This document shows positions 7,845 to 19,218 of a DNA stretch of 19,454 nucleotides, piece by piece; the stretch's first letter is position 1, and each line of letters begins with the position of its first letter. Both the position numbers and the translations under genes were made by a program. Under the pieces are notes generated by a model. The model made no database searches, had not been told where the DNA came from, and saw only the letters and a list, made by a program, of their open reading frames with translations. This stretch comes from a virus (lineage: Duplodnaviria > Heunggongvirae > Uroviricota > Caudoviricetes): positions 1-19,454 of IMG/VR virus record IMGVR_UViG_2563366840_000007, one strand, 5' to 3'.

Positions 7845-8269
7845 TGGAACTGTGGCTGACGGTGAACGGTAAACGCACCTGCGCCAGCGCACCGCTGGAT
7901 CCGCTGACCCGCGCCGTGGTGATTTCCCTGTTTACCTGGCGGCGGGCGGAGCCTGATGACAACGCCGGCGTCCCGATGGGATGGTGGGGGGATACCTGGC
8001 CTGCGGTACAGAATGACCGTTACGGCTCCCGACTGTGGCTGCTTCAGCGCAGCAAACTGACCAATCAGCTGGTGCAGACGGTAAGGGGGTATATCCGCGA
8101 ATGCCTGCAATGGATGATTGATGACGGCGTGGTGTCCCGTATTGATCTGGATATCCGCCGCACCGGGATTAATGAACTGGGTAACAGTATCACTCTCTGG
8201 CGTCGTGACGGACCGGTAATGATTTCTTTTGATGATCTGTGGAGTGCGATAACGCATGGCGGACAGTGA
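7841..8269 (+). CDS. Baseplate protein, GP46 family (Mu gp46-like)
   Basis: 142-aa ORF coupled to neighbours; conserved position between spike and J-like wedge. Confidence 0.75.
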   Translation: MMELWLTVNGKRTCASAPLDPLTRAVVISLFTWRRAEPDDNAGVPMGWWGDTWPAVQNDRYGSRLWLLQRSKLTNQLVQTVRGYIRECLQWMIDDGVVSRIDLDIRRTGINELGNSITLWRRDGPVMISFDDLWSAITHGGQ

Positions 8270-9314
8270 ATTTCAGCGCCCGACGCTGGCAGAAAATATC
8301 AGTATGCTCCGTAACGATTTATTCGCCAGGCTGGACGTCAGCGACACGCTCCGGCGCATGGATGAAGACGTGCGGGCAAAGGTGTATGCGGCGGCGCTGC
8401 ATACGGTTTACGGTTACATCGATTATCTGGCAATGAACATGCTGCCTGACCTGTGCGATGTGTCCTGGCTGGCGCGACATGCTGCGATGAAACGGTGTCC
8501 GCGCAAGGGGGCCACGTCTGCCAGCGGGTATATGCGCTGGGAAGGTGTCAGCGATGGCCTGAAGGTGACCGCCGGGAGTGTTATTCAGCGCGATGACCTG
8601 GTTCAGTACACGGCAACTTCTGATGCAACCAGCTCCGGTGGTGTCCTGCGCGTGCCGATCGCCTGCTCAACTGCAGGCGCGGTCGGTAACGCTGACGACG
8701 GTATGGCATTAATCCTGGTCACGCCGGTGAATGGTCTGCCGTCTTCCGGTGTGGCAGATACCCTGACTGGCGGATTCGATACTGAAGATCTGGAAACGTG
8801 GCGCGCCCGCGTCATTGAGCGGTATTACTGGACGCCGCAGGGCGGGGCTGACGGGGACTATGTCGTCTGGGCTAAAGAAGTGCCCGGCATTACCCGCGCA
8901 TGGACATACCGTCACTGGATGGGAACGGGAACTGTCGGTGTGATGATTGCCAGCAGTGACCTGATTAATCCCATTCCGGAAGAATCAACGGAAACGGCGG
9001 CAAGGCAACATATCGGGCCACTGGCCCCGGTGGCAGGCTCTGATTTGTATGTGTTCAGGCCGGTGGCGCATAAAGTGGATTTTCATATCCACGTGACGCC
9101 GGACACACCGGAAATACGGGCTGCCATCACCGCGGAGTTGCGTTCATTCCTGCTGCGTGATGGTTATCCGCAGGGAGAGCTGAAGGTATCGCGTATCAGT
9201 GAAGCGATTTCCGGTGCGAACGGGGAATACAGCCATCAGTTGCTTGCCCCGGCGGACAATATCACCATTGCGAAAAATGAACTGGCGGTTCTGGGGACGA
9301 TTTCATGGACGTGA
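8256..9314 (+). CDS. Baseplate wedge J-like protein (Mu gp47-like)
   Basis: 352-aa ORF; overlaps neighbours on both sides; J-like size and position. Confidence 0.8.
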
Positions 9315-9889
9315 CAAACGATGATTACATCCGTCTGTTGTCGGCACTGCTGCCCCCTGGTCCGGCGTGGTCAGCCAGCGATCCGGCGATTGCCGGTGCA
9401 GCACCGTCATTAACCCGCGTTCATCTGCGTGCAGATGCCCTGATGCGGGAGCTGGATCCGCGCACCACCACCGAACTGATAAATCGCTGGGAGCGTCTGT
9501 GCGGCCTGCCGGATGAATGTATTCCCGCAGGGACACAGACCCTTCGCCAGCGTCAGCAACGGCTGGATGCGAAGGTTAATCTGGCGGGCGGCATCAATGA
9601 GGATTTTTACCTTGCACAGCTTGCTGCCCTGGGCAGACCAGACGCCACCATCACGCGATACGATAAAAGCACGTTCACCTGCTCATCGGCCTGTACTGAT
9701 GCAGTGAATGCGCCGGAATGGCGGTATTACTGGCAGGTCAACATGCCAGCCGCCACCAACACCACCTGGATGACATGTGGCGATCCCTGTGATTCCGCAC
9801 TGCGTATCTGGGGGGACACCGTTGTCGAGTGCGTGCTTAACAAACTCTGCCCGTCGCATACCTACGTAATTTTTAAATATCCGGAGTAA
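9305..9889 (+). CDS. Tail protein Mu gp48-like (DUF2313/YmfQ-like)
   Basis: 194-aa ORF directly upstream of the tail fibre gene, as in Mu and e14 (ymfQ position). Confidence 0.75.
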
Positions 9890-9892
9890 TCC

Positions 9893-10660
9893 ATGCATCG
9901 TATAGACACGAAAACCGCGCAGAAGGATAAGTTCGGCGCGGGTAAAAACGGTTTTACCCGTGGTAACCCCCAGACTGGCACGCCTGCCACCGATCTGGAT
10001 GATGACTACTTTGACATGTTGCAGGAGGAGCTTTGCAGCGTTGTAGAGGCATCCGGTGCCAGTCTCGAGAAGGCGCGGCACGACCAGCTGCTTACCGCGC
10101 TTCGTGCGCTGCTGTTAAGCCGCAAGAATCCGTTTGGTGATATCAAATCGGACGGCACAGTACCAACGGCTCTCGAAAACCTTGGTTTGGGAGAAGGTTC
10201 GGCATTACCCGTTGGCGTGCCTGTTCCGTGGCCTTCAGCCACTCCGCCAACAGGCTGGCTGAAATGCAATGGTGCACCTTTTTCTGCCGAAGAGTATCCG
10301 GAACTGGCAAAAGTTTATCCGACAAATAAATTGCCAGATTTACGTGGTGAGTTTATTCGTGGCTGGGATGACGGGCGTGGGGTCGATTCAGGGCGAGCGC
10401 TGCTGTCCGCACAAGGTGATGCTATAAGGGACATATCAGGGAAGCTCTTGGGACTTATGACCACTGCGGGAAGCCAGAGGACAGCAGACGAGTGGGTAAC
10501 AGGGCCATTTAATGCTGTATACGAAGGCGGCGCTGGTCAAACAACCTCATCGCCCGGTAATAGGTATGACGTAGGTTTTTCCGCCGCCAGAGTTGTACCA
10601 ACTGCGGAAGAAAACCGACCACGTAACATTGCATTTAACTACATTGTAAGGGCATCATGA
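9893..10660 (+). CDS. Tail fibre protein: constant N-terminal ~97 aa fused to the currently expressed variable C-terminus (158 aa)
   Basis: 255-aa ORF with GGAG RBS; C-terminal region resembles tail-collar/fibre tips; contains the left inversion crossover site at codons ~94-101 (ALENLGLGE). Confidence 0.85.
10170..10195. other. Invertase crossover site, left (gix/pix/hix-like)
   Basis: CTCTCGAAAACCTTGGTTTGGGAGAA: imperfect palindrome around a central TT; 14 bp from the centre outward are identical to the reverse complement of the right site. Confidence 0.7.
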
Positions 10661-11268
10661 TGACCACAAAAAAAATCACTTTGGATGAAAACGGATTTGC
10701 CACGGAAGCTGGCTTTATTACCGTTTACAACTACAACGGAGAAACGCGGGAATATATTTCTACATCAACTGAATATCTCGCTGTCGGCGTCGGTATTCCG
10801 GCGTATTCCTGTTTAGATGCTCCTGGTACATATAAGGCTGGTTATACTATCTGCCGTTCAGCAGATTTAAAATCATGGGAATATATGCCAGACCATCGCG
10901 GTGAAATCGTTTTTAGCACCGAAACAGGGGAATCAAAAGAAATCACAGCTCCGGGTGATTACCCTGATAATACAACCACTATCGCCCCGTTAACCCCATA
11001 CGATAAATGGGATGGTGAGAAATGGGTGACGGATACCGAGGCACAGCACGGCGCAGCAGTAGATGCAGCAGAAGCACAGCGCCAGTCGCTGATTGATACT
11101 GCAATGGCCTCCATCAGTCTGATTCAGCTGAAATTGCAGGCCGGACGTAAACTGACGCAGGCAGAAACAACCCGCCTTAACGCTGTGCTGGATTACATTG
11201 ACGCGGTGACGGCAACAGATACCAGCACCGCGCCGGATGTCATCTGGCCTGAACTGCCGGAGGCGTAG
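10657..11268 (+). CDS. Tail fibre assembly protein (expressed orientation)
   Basis: 203-aa ORF, ATGA-coupled to the fibre gene; C-terminus (...[26 protein letters not shown]) is the conserved assembly-protein tail, also mirrored in the alternate cassette. Confidence 0.85.
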
Positions 11269-11680
11269 GCCATTCAATATCTGGCGCACCGGAAGTATCA
11301 ACCAGCTCCAGTGCATCCAGATAATCCAGCCACAAATTATATTGCGCCAGTTCCTCACCATTCAGACGACCAATAGCGGCTTTACCGGGCCATTGCTTAC
11401 TGTTCATGTATTCGTTGGCCTGATTAATCAGTTGCTGCTTTTCCAGTTCGGCTGCAGCAATCTGTTCCTCATGTGTTGGTGGTGGAATTTCAGACCATGC
11501 AGGAAAACCATTTTCTCCAGCGATACGGATTTTTCCTTTCGGCGGTAATCCGGAAAACTCAATATACACTTGCTCATCAACTTCAACAGCATCATCTGGC
11601 CATGAGTCAGCTTGAGTGTAATCCTCTTTCATCTCCAGCGGATAGAAAGAGTTTGTAGTCGCGGAATATATGTAATTCAT
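11240..11680 (-). CDS. Tail fibre assembly protein, alternate cassette (silent in this orientation)
   Basis: 146-aa ORF on - strand with GGAG RBS; C-terminus (...[24 protein letters not shown]) is parallel to the + strand assembly protein; convergent overlap with it at 11240-11268. Confidence 0.8.
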   Translation of the reverse strand: MNYIYSATTNSFYPLEMKEDYTQADSWPDDAVEVDEQVYIEFSGLPPKGKIRIAGENGFPAWSEIPPPTHEEQIAAAELEKQQLINQANEYMNSKQWPGKAAIGRLNGEELAQYNLWLDYLDALELVDTSGAPDIEWPTPPAVQAR

Positions 11681-11701
11681 TTTTCACTCCATATAGCTAA
11701 A

Positions 11702-12054
11702 TTAACAGCCTAACGCTAAAAATGAAGCGCCGAGGCCAGGAGTACTGGCTCTGGATATAAATTTAACCGGGTCGGGACTAAAACCTGCACAGGCAATATA
11801 ACCAACATCCCCGCTACCTGGTGTATAGTCTTGTGAGACCAAAACACGCAGACATCTGTTTGGAAATGCAATCGGGAAATGGGTTACTACATCCTGTGCA
11901 ATGCCTGGAGCGCCGATTGAGCCCCACTGAAGAATAAAACCTGATGGTAATTTTTGATATCCAGTATCTGAAACAGAAAGCGTGAAGCTACCCATATCAG
12001 GTATCTGATTCGCCCCTGTCCCTACATTCCTTTTAGCCGCTTCTCCCAAACCAA
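11702..12054 (-). CDS. Alternate tail-fibre variable C-terminal segment (promoterless; fused to the constant region after inversion)
   Basis: - strand frame reads [10 protein letters not shown]... beginning exactly at the right crossover site, in the register that joins ...ENL of the constant region; the track ORF's extra N-terminal codons run into the invertase promoter region and are not a real start. Confidence 0.75.
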
Positions 12055-12066
12055 CGTTTATAAAAA
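12041..12066. other. Invertase crossover site, right
   Basis: TTCTCCCAAACCAACGTTTATAAAAA; its reverse complement TTTTTATAAACGTTGGTTTGGGAGAA shares TTGGTTTGGGAGAA with the left site; lies 55 bp upstream of the invertase ATG. Confidence 0.7.
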
Positions 12067-12120
12067 TGCATAAATAACGAGCAAATGGCATCATTCCTGC
12101 TTTTGTCAGGGAGATCTACC

Positions 12121-12675
12121 ATGCTTATTGGCTATGTACGCGTATCAACAAATGATCAGAACACAGATCTACAACGTAATGCGCTGAACTGTGCAGGATG
12201 CGAGCTGATTTTTGAAGACAAGATAAGCGGCACAAAGTCCGAAAGGCCGGGACTGAAAAAACTGCTCAGGACATTATCGGCAGGTGACACTCTGGTTGTC
12301 TGGAAGCTGGATCGGCTGGGGCGTAGTATGCGGCATCTTGTCGTGCTGGTGGAGGAGTTGCGCGAACGAGGCATCAACTTTCGTAGTCTGACGGATTCAA
12401 TTGATACCAGCACACCAATGGGACGCTTTTTCTTTCATGTGATGGGTGCCCTGGCTGAAATGGAGCGTGAACTGATTGTTGAACGAACAAAAGCTGGACT
12501 GGAAGCTGCTCGCGCACAGGGACGAATTGGTGGACGTCGTCCCAAACTTACACCAGAACAATGGGCGCAGGCCGGGCGATTAATTGCATCAGGCGTTCCT
12601 CGCCAAAAGGTGGCGATCATCTATGATGTTGGTATATCGACACTGTATAAGAAGTTTCCGGTCGGAGATAAATGA
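12121..12675 (+). CDS. pin: Serine DNA invertase (Pin/Gin/Hin/Cin family)
   Basis: Begins MLIGYVRVSTNDQ (catalytic Ser motif of the resolvase/invertase family); 184 aa; GGGAGA RBS; C-terminal HTH region; sits directly beside the invertible fibre segment. The track's upstream ATG at 12085 lacks an RBS and overlaps the crossover region. Confidence 0.9.
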   Translation: MLIGYVRVSTNDQNTDLQRNALNCAGCELIFEDKISGTKSERPGLKKLLRTLSAGDTLVVWKLDRLGRSMRHLVVLVEELRERGINFRSLTDSIDTSTPMGRFFFHVMGALAEMERELIVERTKAGLEAARAQGRIGGRRPKLTPEQWAQAGRLIASGVPRQKVAIIYDVGISTLYKKFPVGDK

Positions 12676-12722
12676 AACCGTAGCACGTCGTATGCAAGAA
12701 GATCGTGCTGCGGTTTATGCTT
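12676..12722. terminator. Bidirectional hairpin between convergent invertase and GIY-YIG genes
   Basis: AACCGTAGCACG ... CGTGCTGCGGTT forms a 12-bp stem (one G:U) with a 16-nt loop, flanked by T-rich sequence on both strands. Confidence 0.4.
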
Positions 12723-12735
12723 ATCACTTAAAGAC

Positions 12736-13605
<870 letters not shown>

Positions 13606-13683: not shown

Positions 13684-13749
13684 GGACCGGTCTCGAAAAC
13701 CGGAGTAGGGGCAACTCTACCGGGGGGGCAAATCCCCCTCTCTCCGCCA
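13684..13749 (+). other. Class II tRNA 3' fragment (tRNA-Ser, anticodon CGA), degenerate; probable relic att site
   Basis: CCGGT-CTCGAAA-ACCGG anticodon stem-loop with CGA anticodon, long variable arm, G-run/CAAAT/CCCCC T-arm lacking the canonical TTC, acceptor 3' strand ending GCCA; no 5' half (D-arm, acceptor 5' strand) is present upstream. Confidence 0.6.
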
Positions 13750-14332
13750 CTTTATCAATGACTTATCTCCCGACTTCCCGCCTTGCTTTTCCTAAACAGA
13801 ACAATCGTAGAATATTCTTGAAGGGTTAGATCGTCACTGTTTTCTGTTCGATACTGTGACATTCAGCACTTGATTCGCTATGGATCTGACAGGAAGGTTT
13901 CGAGCGAAAATCTGCAGTTATTCAGTCGTTTTCTTATCGGTCACCATTATTCTTTTAGACATTGATCCTACAAAGCTGCCGCAAAGTTGGTGGTGGGAAC
14001 TGAAGTTGCGTAGAGAAGGGGTCAATACCCGGAGGCAAACATGGGCTGGCAAAAGTGTAGCGGTATTAGGCGCAGCTATTTAGCCTAGTTATGTTTTATG
14101 AAAACTTGATATCATATAAGTGTCTTACTTATTGGCTGTAAATAAGGTTTTCTAAGGAATTGTTTCTTTAGTATCATTTGTAACTGTAACGGAATTTATA
14201 ATCCTTTACTTTATTTTTACGGTATTTTTTATCACACCCTATTTTTTATGTGGTTTTTTATACTGAAGTTTGGCAAAGTGAACTTTATATGCATATACTT
14301 CATCCTGGTTTCAGTTAAATTGGGTGGATGAT

Positions 14333-15076
14333 ATGGCAACTACATGTTCAGTTATATTGATTTTGGAGTCCTTTGATGTTTATTTCGGAAAAGAGAGTGT
14401 GTTTCTGGATAGAGGTTTATCTGTACTTGTCGACTCTAGCTATAGAGATTTTTTCCTGACATATCCTGAAAGAGTGATAGTGGCGGATTTTGGCGCTGAG
14501 TTTATTAGTCGCTATTTGAAAGCTAATAACTTAAGGGATATTTCTGATTGTAGGGAATATCCATCTTATTTAAAAATAAACTTTGCTGACTTCAGTTTAA
14601 TTAAAGGATTAATTAGTTGGGCTAATCACTGTGCTGAATATATAGAAATTTTTGATGAGTCTATTGCTTTTACATGTCTCTCTGCATTTTCTTCTGAAAA
14701 ACAATTTGGAGTATTTCTGTTTGGATGTTTGAAAAGCACAGGGGCTAAAGTTAAAACGATTATTCATACGGATTTATCTGCACCATGGCATCTTAAGGAT
14801 ATATCATCAAGATTATATCTCAGCGAAAGTTTACTAAAGAGGAAATTGAAAGAAGAGGGGGTATCATTCAGTAAGATCCTACTTGATGAGAGGATGCAAA
14901 TGGCTGAATATTTACTCAGCACTCGTTGTTATCCTATTAGTAAAGTAGCTAAGGTCTGTGGTTATGCCAGTGTCTCATACTTTACTTATGTATTTAGACG
15001 TTATTTTGGTGTTTCTCCAAGTCAATACTCTCAGAGGAGTTCAGAAAGTAAAATTCTTACTCACCAGGGAATCTAA
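14333..15076 (+). CDS. AraC/XylS-family transcriptional regulator (AppY/Rns-like class)
   Basis: 247 aa from ATG 14333 (GGTGG RBS); C-terminal dual helix-turn-helix region (...KVAKVCGYASVSYFTYVFRRYFGVSPSQY); gene and upstream 250 bp are visibly AT-rich with repeated T-tracts. Confidence 0.8.
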   Translation: MATTCSVILILESFDVYFGKESVFLDRGLSVLVDSSYRDFFLTYPERVIVADFGAEFISRYLKANNLRDISDCREYPSYLKINFADFSLIKGLISWANHCAEYIEIFDESIAFTCLSAFSSEKQFGVFLFGCLKSTGAKVKTIIHTDLSAPWHLKDISSRLYLSESLLKRKLKEEGVSFSKILLDERMQMAEYLLSTRCYPISKVAKVCGYASVSYFTYVFRRYFGVSPSQYSQRSSESKILTHQGI

Positions 15077-15082
15077 TCATTG

Positions 15083-15345
15083 TTCTTGCCCCCTTATTTC
15101 CAGACAGGGGGTGTATCTTAAGTTAACGTTACCCGCTGACGTCGATATTCTCGCGGAGAGCGATAACCCAACGTACTGTGCGGATGGTTTTCATTGTAAT
15201 GTTCGATCGCCACTGCAAGATTATGCAATGCCGTTCTTATATTCGGTTTCGGCATGAACGCGATGTAGTCTTCCTTCATCGTTTTCACGAACCTTTCTGC
15301 CATTCCATTACTCTGAGGACTGCTGATTACCCATGAGGAGTACAA
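15083..15345 (-). mobile_element. Truncated IS2-like (IS3 family) element: terminal inverted repeat plus 3' end of the transposase gene
   Basis: - strand reads ...CCCCCTGTCTGGAAATAAGGGGGCAAG, resembling the IS2 terminal repeat; adjacent ORF encodes ...[16 protein letters not shown]...[19 protein letters not shown], the C-terminal integrase-core tail of IS2 OrfB; the upstream two-thirds of the element is absent. Confidence 0.6.
15118..15345 (-). pseudogene. IS3-family transposase OrfB C-terminal fragment
   Basis: Only about 64 C-terminal residues of an rve-domain transposase; the first ~10 codons of the track ORF do not match the family. Confidence 0.6.
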
Positions 15346-15565
15346 TTAAACGGGTTAATCAGTTTCTCCATTTGAAAGAAAAAAGACTTCTGTACTGTTT
15401 GATATCACCGCTATTTTCTTATTTTCTGTGCAGGTCGTAGTGGGACAAAACTGAGACACATAAGGCCTCACAATGGCTTGCAAGGCTTTACATGTTTTGA
15501 TGTGGTGGGACGTGTGAGCGCAGTGTTGATGGGGTAATACTTTGAATTAGAAGCGGATTCTTATG

Positions 15566-15611
15566 ATTCGTAATGCGAAGGTCGTAGGTTCGACTCCTAT
15601 TATCGGCACCA
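15566..15611 (+). other. tRNA-Thr 3' fragment (thrW-like 46-nt att core); probable prophage attR
   Basis: ATTCGTAATGCGAAGGTCGTAGGTTCGACTCCTATTATCGGCACCA contains half an anticodon stem-loop, a canonical GGTTCGACTCC T-arm and an acceptor strand ending CCA; no 5' half upstream; P22/SfV-type phages use a 46-bp core identical to the thrW 3' end. Confidence 0.7.
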
Positions 15612-15890
15612 TTAAAATCAAATTGTTACGTAAGATCTTATCATTCTCCCACCAAAAAATTATCTTAATGTAACAGCTGGTGTAAGTAAATTCTATCAAC
15701 GAAGATCAATCTTATCTACTGACCAAAAAGGCCTGATAGGGCTTCGCTCACTATACATCCTTGGCTGCAGGTTTAGTTGTACACCACTCCTAAATTTAAT
15801 GTGTTGGCAATGTGTTCAATAAAGCTCGAACAAATTAGCTCATTATGATCGGTTAATACTTCAACTTCTGGTTGCATGATTGTTTGTCCG

Positions 15891-15927
15891 TAAAAAGATA
15901 ACGCGCCTGCCGGGTAGTAGCAGGCGC
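15891..15927 (-). terminator. Rho-independent terminator downstream of the toxin gene
   Basis: GCGCCTGC-CGGGTAGTA-GCAGGCGC perfect 8-bp stem followed on the - strand by a TTATCTTTTTAC run. Confidence 0.45.
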
Positions 15928-15992
15928 ATTACGCAATAGGTAAACAAGGGAGGAAGTTCAGAAATGTAAATCGGGAAGGTTGTACGCAATGT

Positions 15993-16672
<680 letters not shown>

Positions 16673-16690
16673 TACAGTTCTCCACTATTG

Positions 16691-16912
16691 TCAGTTCAGG
16701 GTGATGCTCATCAGGCAGGTATAGGGCCCATTGCGGTCCTGGCGGCGTTCGGCGTATACCGCGAGGACTCCGGCGATATCCGGAACGTCCCTGTCGGTGT
16801 AATGACAGACGCTACCGTGCCACTGGTATTTGCCGGTGCAGTAGCGAAAGATTCGGGACTCAGGATGCTGGCGGTATATCGTCATTGCCCTGCGTTTACT
16901 GATAATTTTCAT
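16691..16912 (-). CDS. ykfH: DUF987-family protein (YkfH/YeeT/YfjY type)
   Basis: 73 aa from ATG 16912 (GAGG RBS); the track's upstream start would overlap the RadC-like gene. Confidence 0.65.
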   Translation of the reverse strand: MKIISKRRAMTIYRQHPESRIFRYCTGKYQWHGSVCHYTDRDVPDIAGVLAVYAERRQDRNGPYTCLMSITLN

Positions 16913-16920
16913 GTAATACC

Positions 16921-17397
16921 TCAAAGCAGACCGTGTTCTGCGAACGAATAGATTTGCCTGCCACCGACAATCAGATGGTCAGGGACACGGATATCCACCA
17001 GCTGAAGCACCTGAACCAGTCGCTGCGTGAGGGTTTTGTCGGCCTGGCTAGGTGTCGTCTCGCCGGAAGGATGGTTATGCGCGAGTATCACCGCCGCCGC
17101 GTTGAAGTGCAGAGCACGTTTGACCACCTCCCGGGGATGCACCTCGGTGCGGTTAATCGTGCCGGTGAAGAGCGTTTCATGGGCAATCAACTGATTCTGG
17201 TTGTCCAGATACAACACCCGGAACTCTTCCCGTTCAAGCGCGGCCATATGCAGTCGCAGCCATTCACGTACGGCGTGGGTAGAGGTGAAGGCTACGCCGG
17301 GCTCATGCAGGTGGCGGTCCAGAGCCCTGAGCGCCCGCTGAATGAGACGCCGGTCCTGTGGCGTCATCTCGCCGGGTAAAAAGGAAAGCTGTTTCAT
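16921..17397 (-). CDS. ykfG: RadC-like JAB-domain protein
   Basis: 158 aa; contains the HNHPSG...S..D metalloprotease motif typical of RadC/JAB proteins. Confidence 0.8.
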   Translation of the reverse strand: MKQLSFLPGEMTPQDRRLIQRALRALDRHLHEPGVAFTSTHAVREWLRLHMAALEREEFRVLYLDNQNQLIAHETLFTGTINRTEVHPREVVKRALHFNAAAVILAHNHPSGETTPSQADKTLTQRLVQVLQLVDIRVPDHLIVGGRQIYSFAEHGLL

Positions 17398-17412
17398 CTG
17401 TTGCTCCTTCGG

Positions 17413-17871
17413 TCAGTCGATAATACGCAGAATGGCGTGAGCCTCTGGATGTTGCATGGCATACTCCCGCAGGCGGTAATAGTGTGCGGTCATCGCGTCA
17501 CATTCTGTACGGCAGGCATGGTGGCTATACGCAATCAGGCAGACAGCAATACCTGCTGCTTCTGCACTCATTTGGGCATCGTTACCGTTCAGGCAGTTAA
17601 ACAGACGCCATGTCTCATCGTTGTCAGGCTCGGGGGACATAAATGCGCCGCCATTGCTGAGGGTGTAGAACGACCAGATACCACCGCTGTAGCCCTCACA
17701 GAAGCGGTCCATCCAGGCGAAGATATGCGGCTCCAGGAGTAGCCACTGCGGGATAGCGCCAAAGTACTGTGGCCAGAAATCGATACGCTGTTCATCGGGG
17801 ACCGGCGTGACGGTCAGTTCAAATTCGGGTTGGTTAGCGGGTGCGAGGTCGTGCTGCGTCTGTGTTGTCAT
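17413..17871 (-). CDS. yafX: Putative antirestriction protein (YafX/YfjX family)
   Basis: 152 aa from ATG 17871 with GGAGA RBS 9 nt upstream; the track's longer N-terminal extension lacks an RBS. Confidence 0.7.
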   Translation of the reverse strand: MTTQTQHDLAPANQPEFELTVTPVPDEQRIDFWPQYFGAIPQWLLLEPHIFAWMDRFCEGYSGGIWSFYTLSNGGAFMSPEPDNDETWRLFNCLNGNDAQMSAEAAGIAVCLIAYSHHACRTECDAMTAHYYRLREYAMQHPEAHAILRIID

Positions 17872-17968
17872 GGGTATGTCTCCGTCAATAAAAACGCCAG
17901 CGGCGATGGCTGGCGTATGGGGATATAAAGTGTGTTCGGGGAGGTGAATGCGGGTAAATGCTTCGCGA

Positions 17969-18208
17969 TCAGCGGGTGGCCGTGTCTGTACGGATGCCTG
18001 AGGTGCGGATATAGCGGTTAAGACCTTCACCGGCATCCGGCTCAAAGTTCCATGCCCGCCAGACCATCCGGCCTTCAGTATCACGAACCACCAGACGGAA
18101 GTGACTGCCCTGGTCGTCTTCGAGTGTGATATTGCTGTACGTGGTAGTGACCGCTTGCGCTTGTCTCCGGGTGAAAGGCCCCGGTGGCAGCAACACGGAT
18201 TGGGTCAT
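17969..18208 (-). CDS. ykfF: DUF905-family small protein
   Basis: 79 aa from ATG 18208 with GGAG RBS; the 150-aa track ORF is an artificial N-terminal extension across the intergenic region. Confidence 0.6.
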
Positions 18209-18284
18209 TTTCGGGCTCCTGATAAAAGAAAACCCCGGCAGCCTGCTAGCTGTCGGGGTGGATTTGCTGGGGAAGATACTACTA

Positions 18285-18752
18285 TCAGTCGTTGCTGCAG
18301 TCTCCGAGAGTGGACAGAACTTTCTCAGTGTTCTTCCGGTCCGCAGTGAAGGTCCCTGCTTTGTGGTCATTGACGTAGACGTCGAACTGCCCGGCCTCAG
18401 AGATATTGCTGATGAAGTCAAACCAGGCGTTATCGCCGTTACGCCAGCCCAGGCTGGACGGAATAATGTACTGCTGGTGATCCATCACTACGGTGATAGT
18501 AGTGTCGTCATCGTGCGAACTGACCATCTTGTCATCGGCAAGGGTAAGAAAGACTGAATGCTGATAGAAACCATTCTGGTCCGGGTTCCCTGTGCAGTTG
18601 ATGGTAAACGTCTTTCCGCTGGCTTCGGTCACGCTGTATTCCGTATTGCCCTGACCGTAACCCTGCTGCCAGAACCCCGGGATAGCAGAGGCATTAAAGC
18701 TCGCGAGCAGTACACCCGCCAGCATAAACCGACTTAGTGAAAGTATTGTCAT
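18285..18752 (-). CDS. ykfB: Secreted protein of unknown function (signal peptide)
   Basis: 155 aa; N-terminal hydrophobic stretch ending ...FNASA|IPG consistent with a signal peptidase I site. Confidence 0.55.
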
Positions 18753-18774
18753 TCTTGTCTCCTTTGTCGTTGTT

Positions 18775-19218
18775 TTATTCCTGATTGTCAGGGTTCGAGG
18801 GTATCAGTAGCTGCCCCATCAGTTTGCCGTCATGGGCGTACTCAAAGTATTTTTCTTTGGTATACGGGTCCGTCACCTCCTGGTATTCCAGTTTGATGTT
18901 ATCGGCAATACACAGCGCATTCATCAGCGGCTGGATGGTTTTTTCCTGCATATCCACGAGGTAGTAGTAACTACCGCCCTCGCAGCCATCGGGCGACTCA
19001 CGGGTACGTAAGACCTGCAGGGTGAGACCTGATGAAAAGCCAACCTGTGACCATTCTTCGCTGACATCATCCTGCCGACTGACCACATCGCTGAAGCGCG
19101 GAGGCGTGAGGTCCTTAAATTTACTGATAGCTTTCAGGTCATCACTCCTGTCATCGCAGGCGCTCAGAAACAGAGTGGTGGCAACCATCGCCAGCAGAGG
19201 TAGTGTTTTACATTTCAT
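18775..19218 (-). CDS. yafY: Lipoprotein of unknown function
   Basis: 147 aa; signal peptide with lipobox LSAC (MKCKTLPLLAMVATTLFLSAC); start codon overlaps the upstream gene's stop (TAATG). Confidence 0.6.
   Translation of the reverse strand: MKCKTLPLLAMVATTLFLSACDDRSDDLKAISKFKDLTPPRFSDVVSRQDDVSEEWSQVGFSSGLTLQVLRTRESPDGCEGGSYYYLVDMQEKTIQPLMNALCIADNIKLEYQEVTDPYTKEKYFEYAHDGKLMGQLLIPSNPDNQE

Follow-up and report, generated by a model that had tools for sequence, protein, structure and literature searches.

The window analysed here, a stretch of 19,454 nt from a caudoviral genome, is part of an SfV/SfIV-like prophage with a Mu-type contractile tail, and the locus considered in this work lies at the end of its tail operon. 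The tail-fibre gene at this position comes after baseplate genes of the Mu gp47/gp48 type. A scan of the window for tRNA genes found none. The features of the locus, in order of position, are as follows:

9893-10660, + strand: tail-fibre gene as sequenced (255 aa; from the list of open reading frames), with its constant N-terminal part at 9893-10181
10170-10195, + strand: left crossover site (26 bp; CTCTCGAAAACCTTGGTTTGGGAGAA; central dinucleotide TT at 10182-10183), identical to the e14 left site
Crossover to 10660, + strand: variable tip A, with a Collar domain (Pfam Collar, residues 108-155, E 6e-15)
10184-12052, no strand assigned: predicted invertible segment, 1869 bp between the central dinucleotides
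10657-11268, + strand: tip A assembly protein (chaperone, TfaA; 203 aa; Pfam Caudo_TAP, E 6e-33; 87% identity to e14 TfaE)
11240-11680, - strand: tip B assembly protein (TfaB; 146 aa; Pfam Caudo_TAP, E 4e-38)
11702-12055, - strand: parked tip B cassette (117 aa; Pfam Gp53-like_C, E 2e-15)
12041-12066, - strand: right crossover site (26 bp; reverse complement TTTTTATAAACGTTGGTTTGGGAGAA; central dinucleotide at 12053-12054), matching the e14 right site at 25/26 positions
12121-12675, + strand: DNA invertase, Pin (184 aa; Pfam Resolvase, E 1.5e-51, and HTH_7, E 5e-13)
12139-12210, + strand: recombinational enhancer homologue, aligning with nt 19-90 of P1 cin, the annotated enhancer in the P1 record

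The closest well-studied relative of these genes is found in the e14 element of E. coli K-12. The first 105 residues of the fibre are 96% identical to residues 1-105 of e14 StfP, and tip A shows 63% identity to e14 StfE. The gene for the tip A assembly protein begins by overlapping the stop codon of the fibre gene (ATGA) and ends in a 29-nt overlap with the convergent gene for TfaB, the C-terminal 96 residues of which are 61% identical to e14 TfaP. One Caudo_TAP chaperone gene is thus found behind each tip, two in total. Tip B itself shows merely 31% identity to the tip of e14 StfP. On the - strand, its open reading frame runs beyond the segment to an in-frame ATG at 12094, forming a complete 130-aa frame with a 13-aa leader that is encoded outside the segment, and PGAP calls the equivalent of this frame in relatives. 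The pipeline-called 130-aa “gp53-like domain-containing protein” is the parked cassette. The original prediction had described this tip as promoterless, a label that the ATG at 12094 leaves unproven.

The original prediction, made from the letters of the DNA, had placed two inverted 26-bp sites at 10170-10195 and 12041-12066; both lie exactly there, in inverted orientation and with matching central dinucleotides (TT/AA). The 14-bp half that they were said to have in common, TTGGTTTGGGAGAA, has two copies in the 19.4-kb window and no more, one per strand; the perfect inverted repeat between the sites is 15 nt long, and the extended one spans 20 nt at 95% (10177-10196 / 12040-12059). Of 300 shuffled versions of the 3-kb region, 4 contained a perfect inverted repeat of at least 14 nt, so that the length of the repeat is by itself just moderately unusual; at the sequence level it is the match to e14 that is decisive. 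All bases of the left site agree with those of its counterpart in the P segment of e14 (E. coli K-12). The right site departs from that of e14 at one base, a G -> A change at 12062 that puts a T where e14 carries C, position 5 in the outer half-site, and a second change is seen 5 nt beyond the site (12071 T). Both sites of the window share an AAACC-NN-GGTTT core with the gix sites of Mu, whose centres coincide with the annotated boundaries of the G segment. The change in the right site is probably tolerated because a functional outer half-site of Mu gix also has a T at the aligned position. No further crossover-like sites were found within the invertible segment, and the system therefore has only two states; a shufflon-like system with multiple sites is ruled out on the same grounds.

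As had been proposed, the left site falls within the fibre gene, with codons 93-101 (of 9893-10660) reading ALENLGLGE across it, and the right site is in frame, with the - strand reading NVGLGE in the same codon phase. Inverting the segment computationally yields an uninterrupted fibre of 213 aa, versus 255 aa as sequenced. The 5' part of the gene, which stays outside the segment, is constant, and either of the two alternative 3' parts within the segment can follow it in frame. The sizes predicted for the alternatives were also right (tips of 158 versus 117 aa and assembly proteins of 203 versus 146 aa), and all of the proposed components, namely, the invertase, the two sites, the split fibre gene, and the two tip cassettes with their chaperones, are present and intact.

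The invertase is 96.7% identical to PinE and 79% identical to Mu Gin, and its residues 1-181 match the Gin structures 3uj3 and 4m6f with E values of 1e-93 or better. It has the N-terminal catalytic domain with a serine nucleophile and the C-terminal HTH typical of the small serine recombinases, and carries Ser9, the DRLGR motif (D64-R65-L66-G67-R68), and the wild-type Met114. The basic residues of helix B, K46, K47, and R50, are likewise present (K47, K/R48, and K/R51 in Hin; Pin numbering is that of Hin minus 1); these residues contact the enhancer and are specific to the Fis-dependent invertases (PMC3798978). By these sequence features, the recombinase is assigned to the Din family. The protein is of full length, with every catalytic motif kept. 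The gene does start just outside the right site, as had been noted, although the distance of 55 bp given for it needs correction: the ATG at 12121 is 54 nt past the end of the site. An alternative start at 12085, giving a 196-aa frame, is probably not real. The start at 12121 is preferred because GGAG stands seven nt upstream of it and the resulting N terminus is an exact match to those of PinE, Gin, and Cin.

The 5' end of the invertase gene also includes a stretch homologous to the recombinational enhancers of related systems, with identities of 57/72 to P1, 54/72 to Mu, and 71/72 to e14. Two candidate Fis cores in this stretch (12143-12157 and 12191-12205), 48 bp apart from centre to centre, are conserved in all four genes, and the centre of the nearer core is 96 bp from that of the site. 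By homology, then, the region has the predicted layout of an enhancer, with two putative Fis sites about 48 bp apart located about 100 bp from the nearer site and within the 5' end of the invertase gene, and Fis would be expected to bind at these cores. The candidate promoter-proximal core has a synonymous C -> T change at 12156, where P1 has an A. Conservation at synonymous sites over the enhancer among pin, gin, and cin rises but slightly for the window and P1 (0.54 against about 0.45), with no rise for the window and Mu. As this comparison of few genes is uninformative, the enhancer was called on its homology to the annotated enhancer of P1. This stretch and the natural examples of both orientations described below are additions to what the original prediction had observed.

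Natural examples of both states are seen among relatives. Over 8780 bp, the E. coli genomes ECONIH1 and WP4-S18-ESBL-09 agree at every base apart from the 1840 bp lying between these repeats, which in one genome are the exact reverse complement of those in the other; the element in these two chromosomes has 94.6% identity to that of the window. A census of complete E. coli genomes counted 26 with a match to 80% or more of the query as the window has it, and 15 with a match to the version flipped by computation. The 1869-bp segment itself is 100% identical in four loci (L023, L024, L026, and L029) and 99.8% identical in a fifth (L021). The fully identical copies lie in P2-like and other SfV-like prophages, with both states present; the similarity around them stops at the sites, and their outer half-sites vary widely. 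The 99.8% copy belongs to a second prophage of the same genome as the window, at about 1.53 Mb, where it is in the flipped state and accompanied by a second Din-family invertase. Experimental evidence comes from e14, whose repeats TTGGTTTGGGAGAAGG / CCTTCTCCCAAACCAA have been inverted by PinE and PinQ (PMC12529663), and from K-12 cultures, in which both orientations coexist (PMC4272514).

Taken together, these observations make it highly probable (roughly 0.88) that the locus is a two-state tail-fibre switch driven by an invertase of the Pin/Gin/Cin type. The system is an already known one: it is structurally complete and near-identical to the e14 switch of E. coli K-12, and thus real but ordinary. 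By the mechanism of this family, Pin dimers would bind the two 26-bp sites, host Fis would bind the enhancer inside the 5' end of pin, and the two sites and the enhancer would join into an invertasome. Ser9 would then cut each site at its central dinucleotide, after which rotation of the subunits would invert the 1869-bp segment. As sequenced, the constant 96-97 N-terminal residues would be made with the 158-aa Collar tip and co-expressed with the 203-aa assembly protein; after inversion, the same N terminus would be continued in frame into the 117-aa gp53-like tip, co-expressed with the 146-aa assembly protein. We infer that the copy in the window inverts in its own strain and that inversion here would require Fis. 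The two tips presumably recognize different receptors, and the unrelated nature of their predicted domains (Collar versus gp53-like_C) is consistent with this, rather than proof of it. A lysogen population would accordingly be expected to release phage of two receptor specificities.

Several other readings were weighed against such a switch. That the sites are a chance inverted repeat, or a conserved fibre motif with no role in recombination, has a negligible probability. The shuffles do produce repeats of this length now and then, and ALENLGLGE also occurs in fibres whose listed matches show no invertase, such as that of HK106. However, the sites match the characterised crossover sites of e14, an intact invertase lies 54 nt away, and the exact natural inversion between the same repeats in E. 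coli isolates refutes this reading in practice. A different possibility is that the anatomy is complete but the switch is frozen, with substitutions in the right site and the enhancer having reduced inversion below any useful rate and locked the locus in the Collar-tip state. Consistent with this, the variant of the right site (12062 A, 12071 T) is seen only in the source genome and only in the orientation of the window, exact-pattern scans for its flank across a collection of one genome per species returned no match, and the other loci encoding an identical invertase protein all have the e14-type right site. Against it stand the intact invertase, the T in the functional Mu gix half-site, and the wide variation of outer half-sites around the 100%-identical segment in relatives. 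The genome also has its second Din-family invertase (that of L021), and the e14 sites can be inverted in trans by PinQ and PinR in addition to PinE (PMC12529663). We therefore consider a frozen switch very unlikely.

The remaining readings concern what the switch is for. The parked-tip frame (11702-12094) could be expressed in the lysogen and block the adsorption of other phages, besides or instead of the switching of host range, as was reported in 2025 for StfE2 of e14 (PMC12529663). In support of such a defensive toggle, the frame has its in-frame ATG outside the segment and is built like StfE2, with a leader of the form MPFA.Y..IFIN followed by a gp53-like domain (PMC12529663). The window as sequenced is also in the state termed inverted in that study (PMC12529663), and the next gene downstream of the invertase is the defence gene PD-T4-3. 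On the other hand, the divergence of tip B from the e14 StfP tip (31% identity) tells against an equivalent function. The sole match to a promoter consensus on the - strand is about 180 nt upstream, within pin, and scans of 9700-12900 for promoters and terminators gave no more matches than did shuffles, with nothing usable for pin or the parked frame. The AGGA element is too near the ATG to make a good ribosome-binding site; in the P2-like flanks of the identical segment, which have no called gene at this place, the leader is broken or not in frame; and the effect on adsorption in e14 was seen with over-production from a plasmid in one study. A defensive role of this kind is hence quite unlikely. 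Unlikely, too, is the broader view of a dual-purpose locus in an intact SfV-like prophage, in which host-range switching would be combined with an adsorption-blocking leader/parked-tip protein and, together with PD-T4-3, would constitute a defence locus, or the related reading that the segment is a mobile cassette. In the latter, the 1.87-kb segment itself may be exchanged between co-resident prophages through recombination by the invertase at the sites. It is favoured by the 100%-identical copies in unrelated backbones, where the similarity breaks off precisely at the sites, and by the 99.8% copy in the second prophage of the same genome.

The two-state host-range switch, our preferred reading, has some practical consequences, mainly in annotation. 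One invertible unit should take the place of five independent genes for the fibre, the parked tip, and both chaperones, and breaks in assemblies, or differences between them, can have a biological cause at this locus. In phage work, it should be kept in mind that the SfV-like prophage of the window probably releases two types of virion. The locus opens no new question; the only mildly forward-looking points are the possible role of the parked-tip frame in defence and the signs that the segment travels as a unit between unrelated phages.

Comparison with known systems places the locus alongside the P segment of e14 and its invertase PinE. Both have the gene order ymfQ-like gene, fibre, tfa, tfa', tip', and pin, the 29-nt overlap of convergent tfa genes, and a cargo gene directly after pin. 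They differ in the identity of that cargo, which is mcrA in e14 and PD-T4-3 in the window; in the backbone, which is a full and intact SfV/SfIV-type set of tail genes in the window and a remnant in e14; and in the tip of the fibre as sequenced, which is Collar in the window and gp53-like in the K-12 reference. The G segment of Mu with its invertase Gin has the same plan: the left site divides the fibre gene, the chaperones are of the U/U' type, an S' cassette is parked, and the invertase stands just beyond the right site, with an enhancer in the 5' end of its gene. However, the G segment measures about 3 kb against 1.87 kb here, and of the 504 aa of the Mu fibre about 170 are constant, as opposed to about 96 of the 255 or 213 aa in the window. 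The C segment and Cin of P1 belong to the same family, as is apparent from the 57/72 identity of the cin enhancer to 12139-12210, yet the C segment is 4.2 kb long and cixL is located at the 3' end of cin rather than upstream of it. With the H segment and Hin of Salmonella, the locus shares the recombinase subfamily, the invertasome built on Fis and the enhancer, and the basic residues of helix B (PMC3798978). There, a promoter is flipped and hin lies inside the segment, whereas in the window the flip concerns a fusion of coding sequences and the invertase is outside. Finally, in multi-site systems such as Min of p15B and the four-variant locus of a P2-like prophage (PMC4272514), an invertase of the Din family likewise shuffles fibre tips; in contrast to these, the locus in the window achieves its variation with two sites and two states only.

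Both crossover sites lie where the original prediction had placed them. Read from the window, the left site (10170-10195) is CTCTCGAAAACCTTGGTTTGGGAGAA and the right site (12041-12066) is TTCTCCCAAACCAACGTTTATAAAAA, with the reverse complement TTTTTATAAACGTTGGTTTGGGAGAA; the two 26-bp sites are inverted and share an identical 14-bp half. This half, TTGGTTTGGGAGAA, has exactly two copies in the 19.4-kb window, one per strand, and a repeat finder reports an inverted repeat of 20 nt at 95%, with a perfect stretch of 15 nt. When the 3-kb region was shuffled 300 times, perfect inverted repeats of at least 14 nt arose in 4 cases; the length by itself is only moderately unusual, and the case therefore rests on the matches of the sites and on their positions among the surrounding genes.

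Genes of the switch and its upstream neighbors, with Pfam domains
8256-9314, + strand: Baseplate_J
9305-9889, + strand: Phage_Mu_Gp48
9893-10660, + strand: fibre, Collar domain
10657-11268, + strand: assembly protein, Caudo_TAP
11240-11680, - strand: assembly protein, Caudo_TAP
11702-12094, - strand: Gp53-like_C
12121-12675, + strand: invertase, Resolvase and HTH_7

The fibre ORF (9893-10660) codes for A-L-E-N-L-G-L-G-E over the left site; over the right site, the - strand codes for N-V-G-L-G-E, with the codon phase unchanged. When the segment is inverted in silico at the central dinucleotide, a fibre ORF of 213 aa stays open, in keeping with the predicted in-frame junction to an alternate tip, and the predicted sizes of tips and assembly proteins are likewise correct. 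The prediction stands, as observation and as interpretation, save for small details: the invertase, put at 55 bp outside the right site, has its ATG at 12121, 54 nt past the site (an ORF start at 12085 is unlikely to be the true one). The parked tip is not simply start-less, as it belongs to a 130-aa ORF whose in-frame ATG (12094) lies outside the segment. The backbone represents a prophage tail module of the SfV/SfIV type, 98% identical to phages SfIV and vB_EcoM-720R4 up to 10196, one base beyond the end of the left site.

When complete E. coli genomes were queried with the window orientation and with a computationally flipped version, full-length matches (at least 80% coverage) were obtained in 26 genomes for the former and 15 for the latter, with equal top scores. 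The top pair, ECONIH1 and WP4-S18-ESBL-09, have the same RefSeq proteins throughout, and every base of 8780 bp is equal save for the 1840 bp between the repeats, which are the exact reverse complement. By analogy with these relatives, we infer that the segment inverts in the window's own strain. The induced-phage record of vB_EcoM-720R4 (ON470603.1) is in the flipped state, with a 213-aa YfdL-like fibre; hence the end of its match to the window at 10196. This record starts inside the invertible segment, and that of the induced phage vB_EcoM-689R6 (ON470584.1) at the start of the invertase gene; such contig ends at the switch locus may stem from a sequenced stock that contained phages in both orientations.

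The invertase, Pin, matches crystal structures of Mu Gin over residues 1-181 (E about 1e-93 or better), with 79% identity to Gin and 96.7% to e14 PinE, and has Ser9, DRLGR at 64-68 and a wild-type Met114. Also present are K46, K47 and R50, the counterparts of Hin residues 47, 48 and 51, whose conservation is specific to Fis/enhancer-dependent invertases (PMC3798978). The enhancer annotated at nt 19-90 of cin in the P1 record aligns with 12139-12210, which is identical at 57/72 positions to P1, 54/72 to Mu and 71/72 to e14. By a crude Fis-core score, two candidate 15-mers (12143-12157 and 12191-12205), 48 bp apart and one at each end of this stretch, are kept in all four genes; the promoter-proximal one contains a synonymous change at 12156. 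The center of the nearer candidate lies 96 bp from the right site, in agreement with the Hin enhancer, which is ~100 bp from the closest hix site (PMC3798978). Fis is predicted to bind here.

The right site has A for G at 12062, so that position 5 of the outer half-site, C in e14, is T here; in its flank, G is replaced by T at 12071. At every other locus coding for the identical invertase protein, the right site is of the e14 type, without these changes, and in those loci and in pattern scans the variant was found only in the window's genome and in one orientation. Such confinement might point to a frozen switch that no longer inverts here, which we consider very unlikely: T also stands at the aligned position of the outer half-site in Mu gix, and outer half-sites beside the identical segment vary widely in nature, so that the 12062 change is judged tolerable. 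In an e14 remnant beside icd (L010, GCA_019584195.1, 3906-3946), the inner half-site TTCTCCCAAACCAAC occurs twice in tandem and the left site lacks its outer half, as if aberrant recombination or a deletion at the crossover site had left a scar. In phage SfIV (L007, 2012-4736), the fibre, tfa and a convergent second tfa are directly followed by an IS element, with parked tip and invertase absent from this locus; it looks like an invertible segment shortened by IS insertion.

The parked tip might alternatively, or in addition, serve to block adsorption. Inversion of the e14 P segment is reported to create StfE2, an stfE leader joined to the gp53-like StfP tip, which blocks T2 adsorption when over-produced (PMC12529663, 2025). 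The 130-aa ORF at 11702-12094 (-), called as a separate gene by annotation pipelines, is built alike, with a 13-aa leader conserved with e14 stfE (MPFA.Y..IFIN; ATG outside the segment) before its gp53-like domain, and the window is in the state termed inverted in that study. However, this tip is just 31% identical to the StfP tip, a promoter scan gave no outstanding signal, and the leader is broken in the P2-like flanks of the identical segment, where annotation shows no gene; we thus regard such a role as unlikely.

An exact look-up of TfaA, the assembly protein of the Collar tip, recovered the window's 1869-bp segment at 100% identity from three P2-like phages and one dusA-integrated SfV-like prophage, with the Collar tip on the fibre in some copies and the gp53-like tip in others. 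Around the identical segment (L023, L024, L026, L029), flanks and outer half-sites differ, the invertases are 52-88% identical to Pin, and similarity breaks off at the crossover sites. The interval 10171-10196 likewise bounds the matches to HK106, a P2-like O157 phage, Citrobacter phage Omnitron and vB_EcoM-720R4, which start or end there. In these comparisons, the invertible segment appears to be exchanged horizontally as a unit, a known property of Mu G and P1 C. A second prophage with a Mu-type tail lies on the same scaffold (KB732923.1, GCA_000351905.1, which begins with the 19,454 nt of the window) at about 1,528,693-1,536,304 (~1.53 Mb). Its copy, 99.8% identical (4 differences in 1869 nt), is in the flipped state and adjoins a 186-aa invertase with just 52% identity to Pin. 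The two copies, ~1.5 Mb apart in inverted orientation, could be acted on by an invertase in trans or recombine in a large chromosomal inversion.

Directly after pin, a gene at 12736-13560 (-) is a PADLOC match (E 2.7e-140) to PD-T4-3, an anti-phage system of one gene, and its product has a LEM-3-like GIY-YIG nuclease domain (Pfam). Several loci encoding the identical invertase also carry it. In e14, the corresponding place behind pinE belongs to mcrA, so that the position next to the invertase looks like a site for defence cargo. The stretch 13688-19218 is past the prophage end; after its AraC-family regulator it matches records in which an AraC-family regulator and a transposase are annotated, and then follows a CP4-type island segment on the - strand. 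A tRNA scan found no tRNA gene in the window.

Features past the prophage end (all but the first in the CP4-type island)
14324-15076: AraC-family regulator
15993-16397, - strand: CbtA toxin
16355-16672, - strand: CbeA antitoxin
16921-17397, - strand: RadC
17413-18084, - strand: antirestriction protein
within 13688-19218, - strand: DUF905 and YfjS/YafY lipoprotein

The closest comparison is with e14 of E. coli K-12, which has CTCTCGAAAACCTTGGTTTGGGAGAA within stfP and TTCTCCCAAACCAACGTTTATGAAAA next to pinE; the left site of the window is identical and the right differs by 1 base. With Mu gix, which centers on the annotated G-segment boundaries, the core AAACC-NN-GGTTT is common. PinE and PinQ invert the P segment at these e14 repeats experimentally (PMC12529663), and K-12 cultures hold both orientations together (PMC4272514). 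Identity is 96% between the constant part of the fibre and StfP residues 1-105 and 87% between TfaA and TfaE, whereas the tips have diverged (63% to StfE for the Collar tip, 31% to the StfP tip for the parked one); the second assembly protein, TfaB, is 61% identical to TfaP. The arrangement is already known, carried by many E. coli genomes and routinely annotated (pinE, tfaE, gp53-like domain protein). The system, which resides in an SfV-like prophage, is the e14/Pin member of the Hin-Gin-Cin-Pin family with another pair of tip cassettes.
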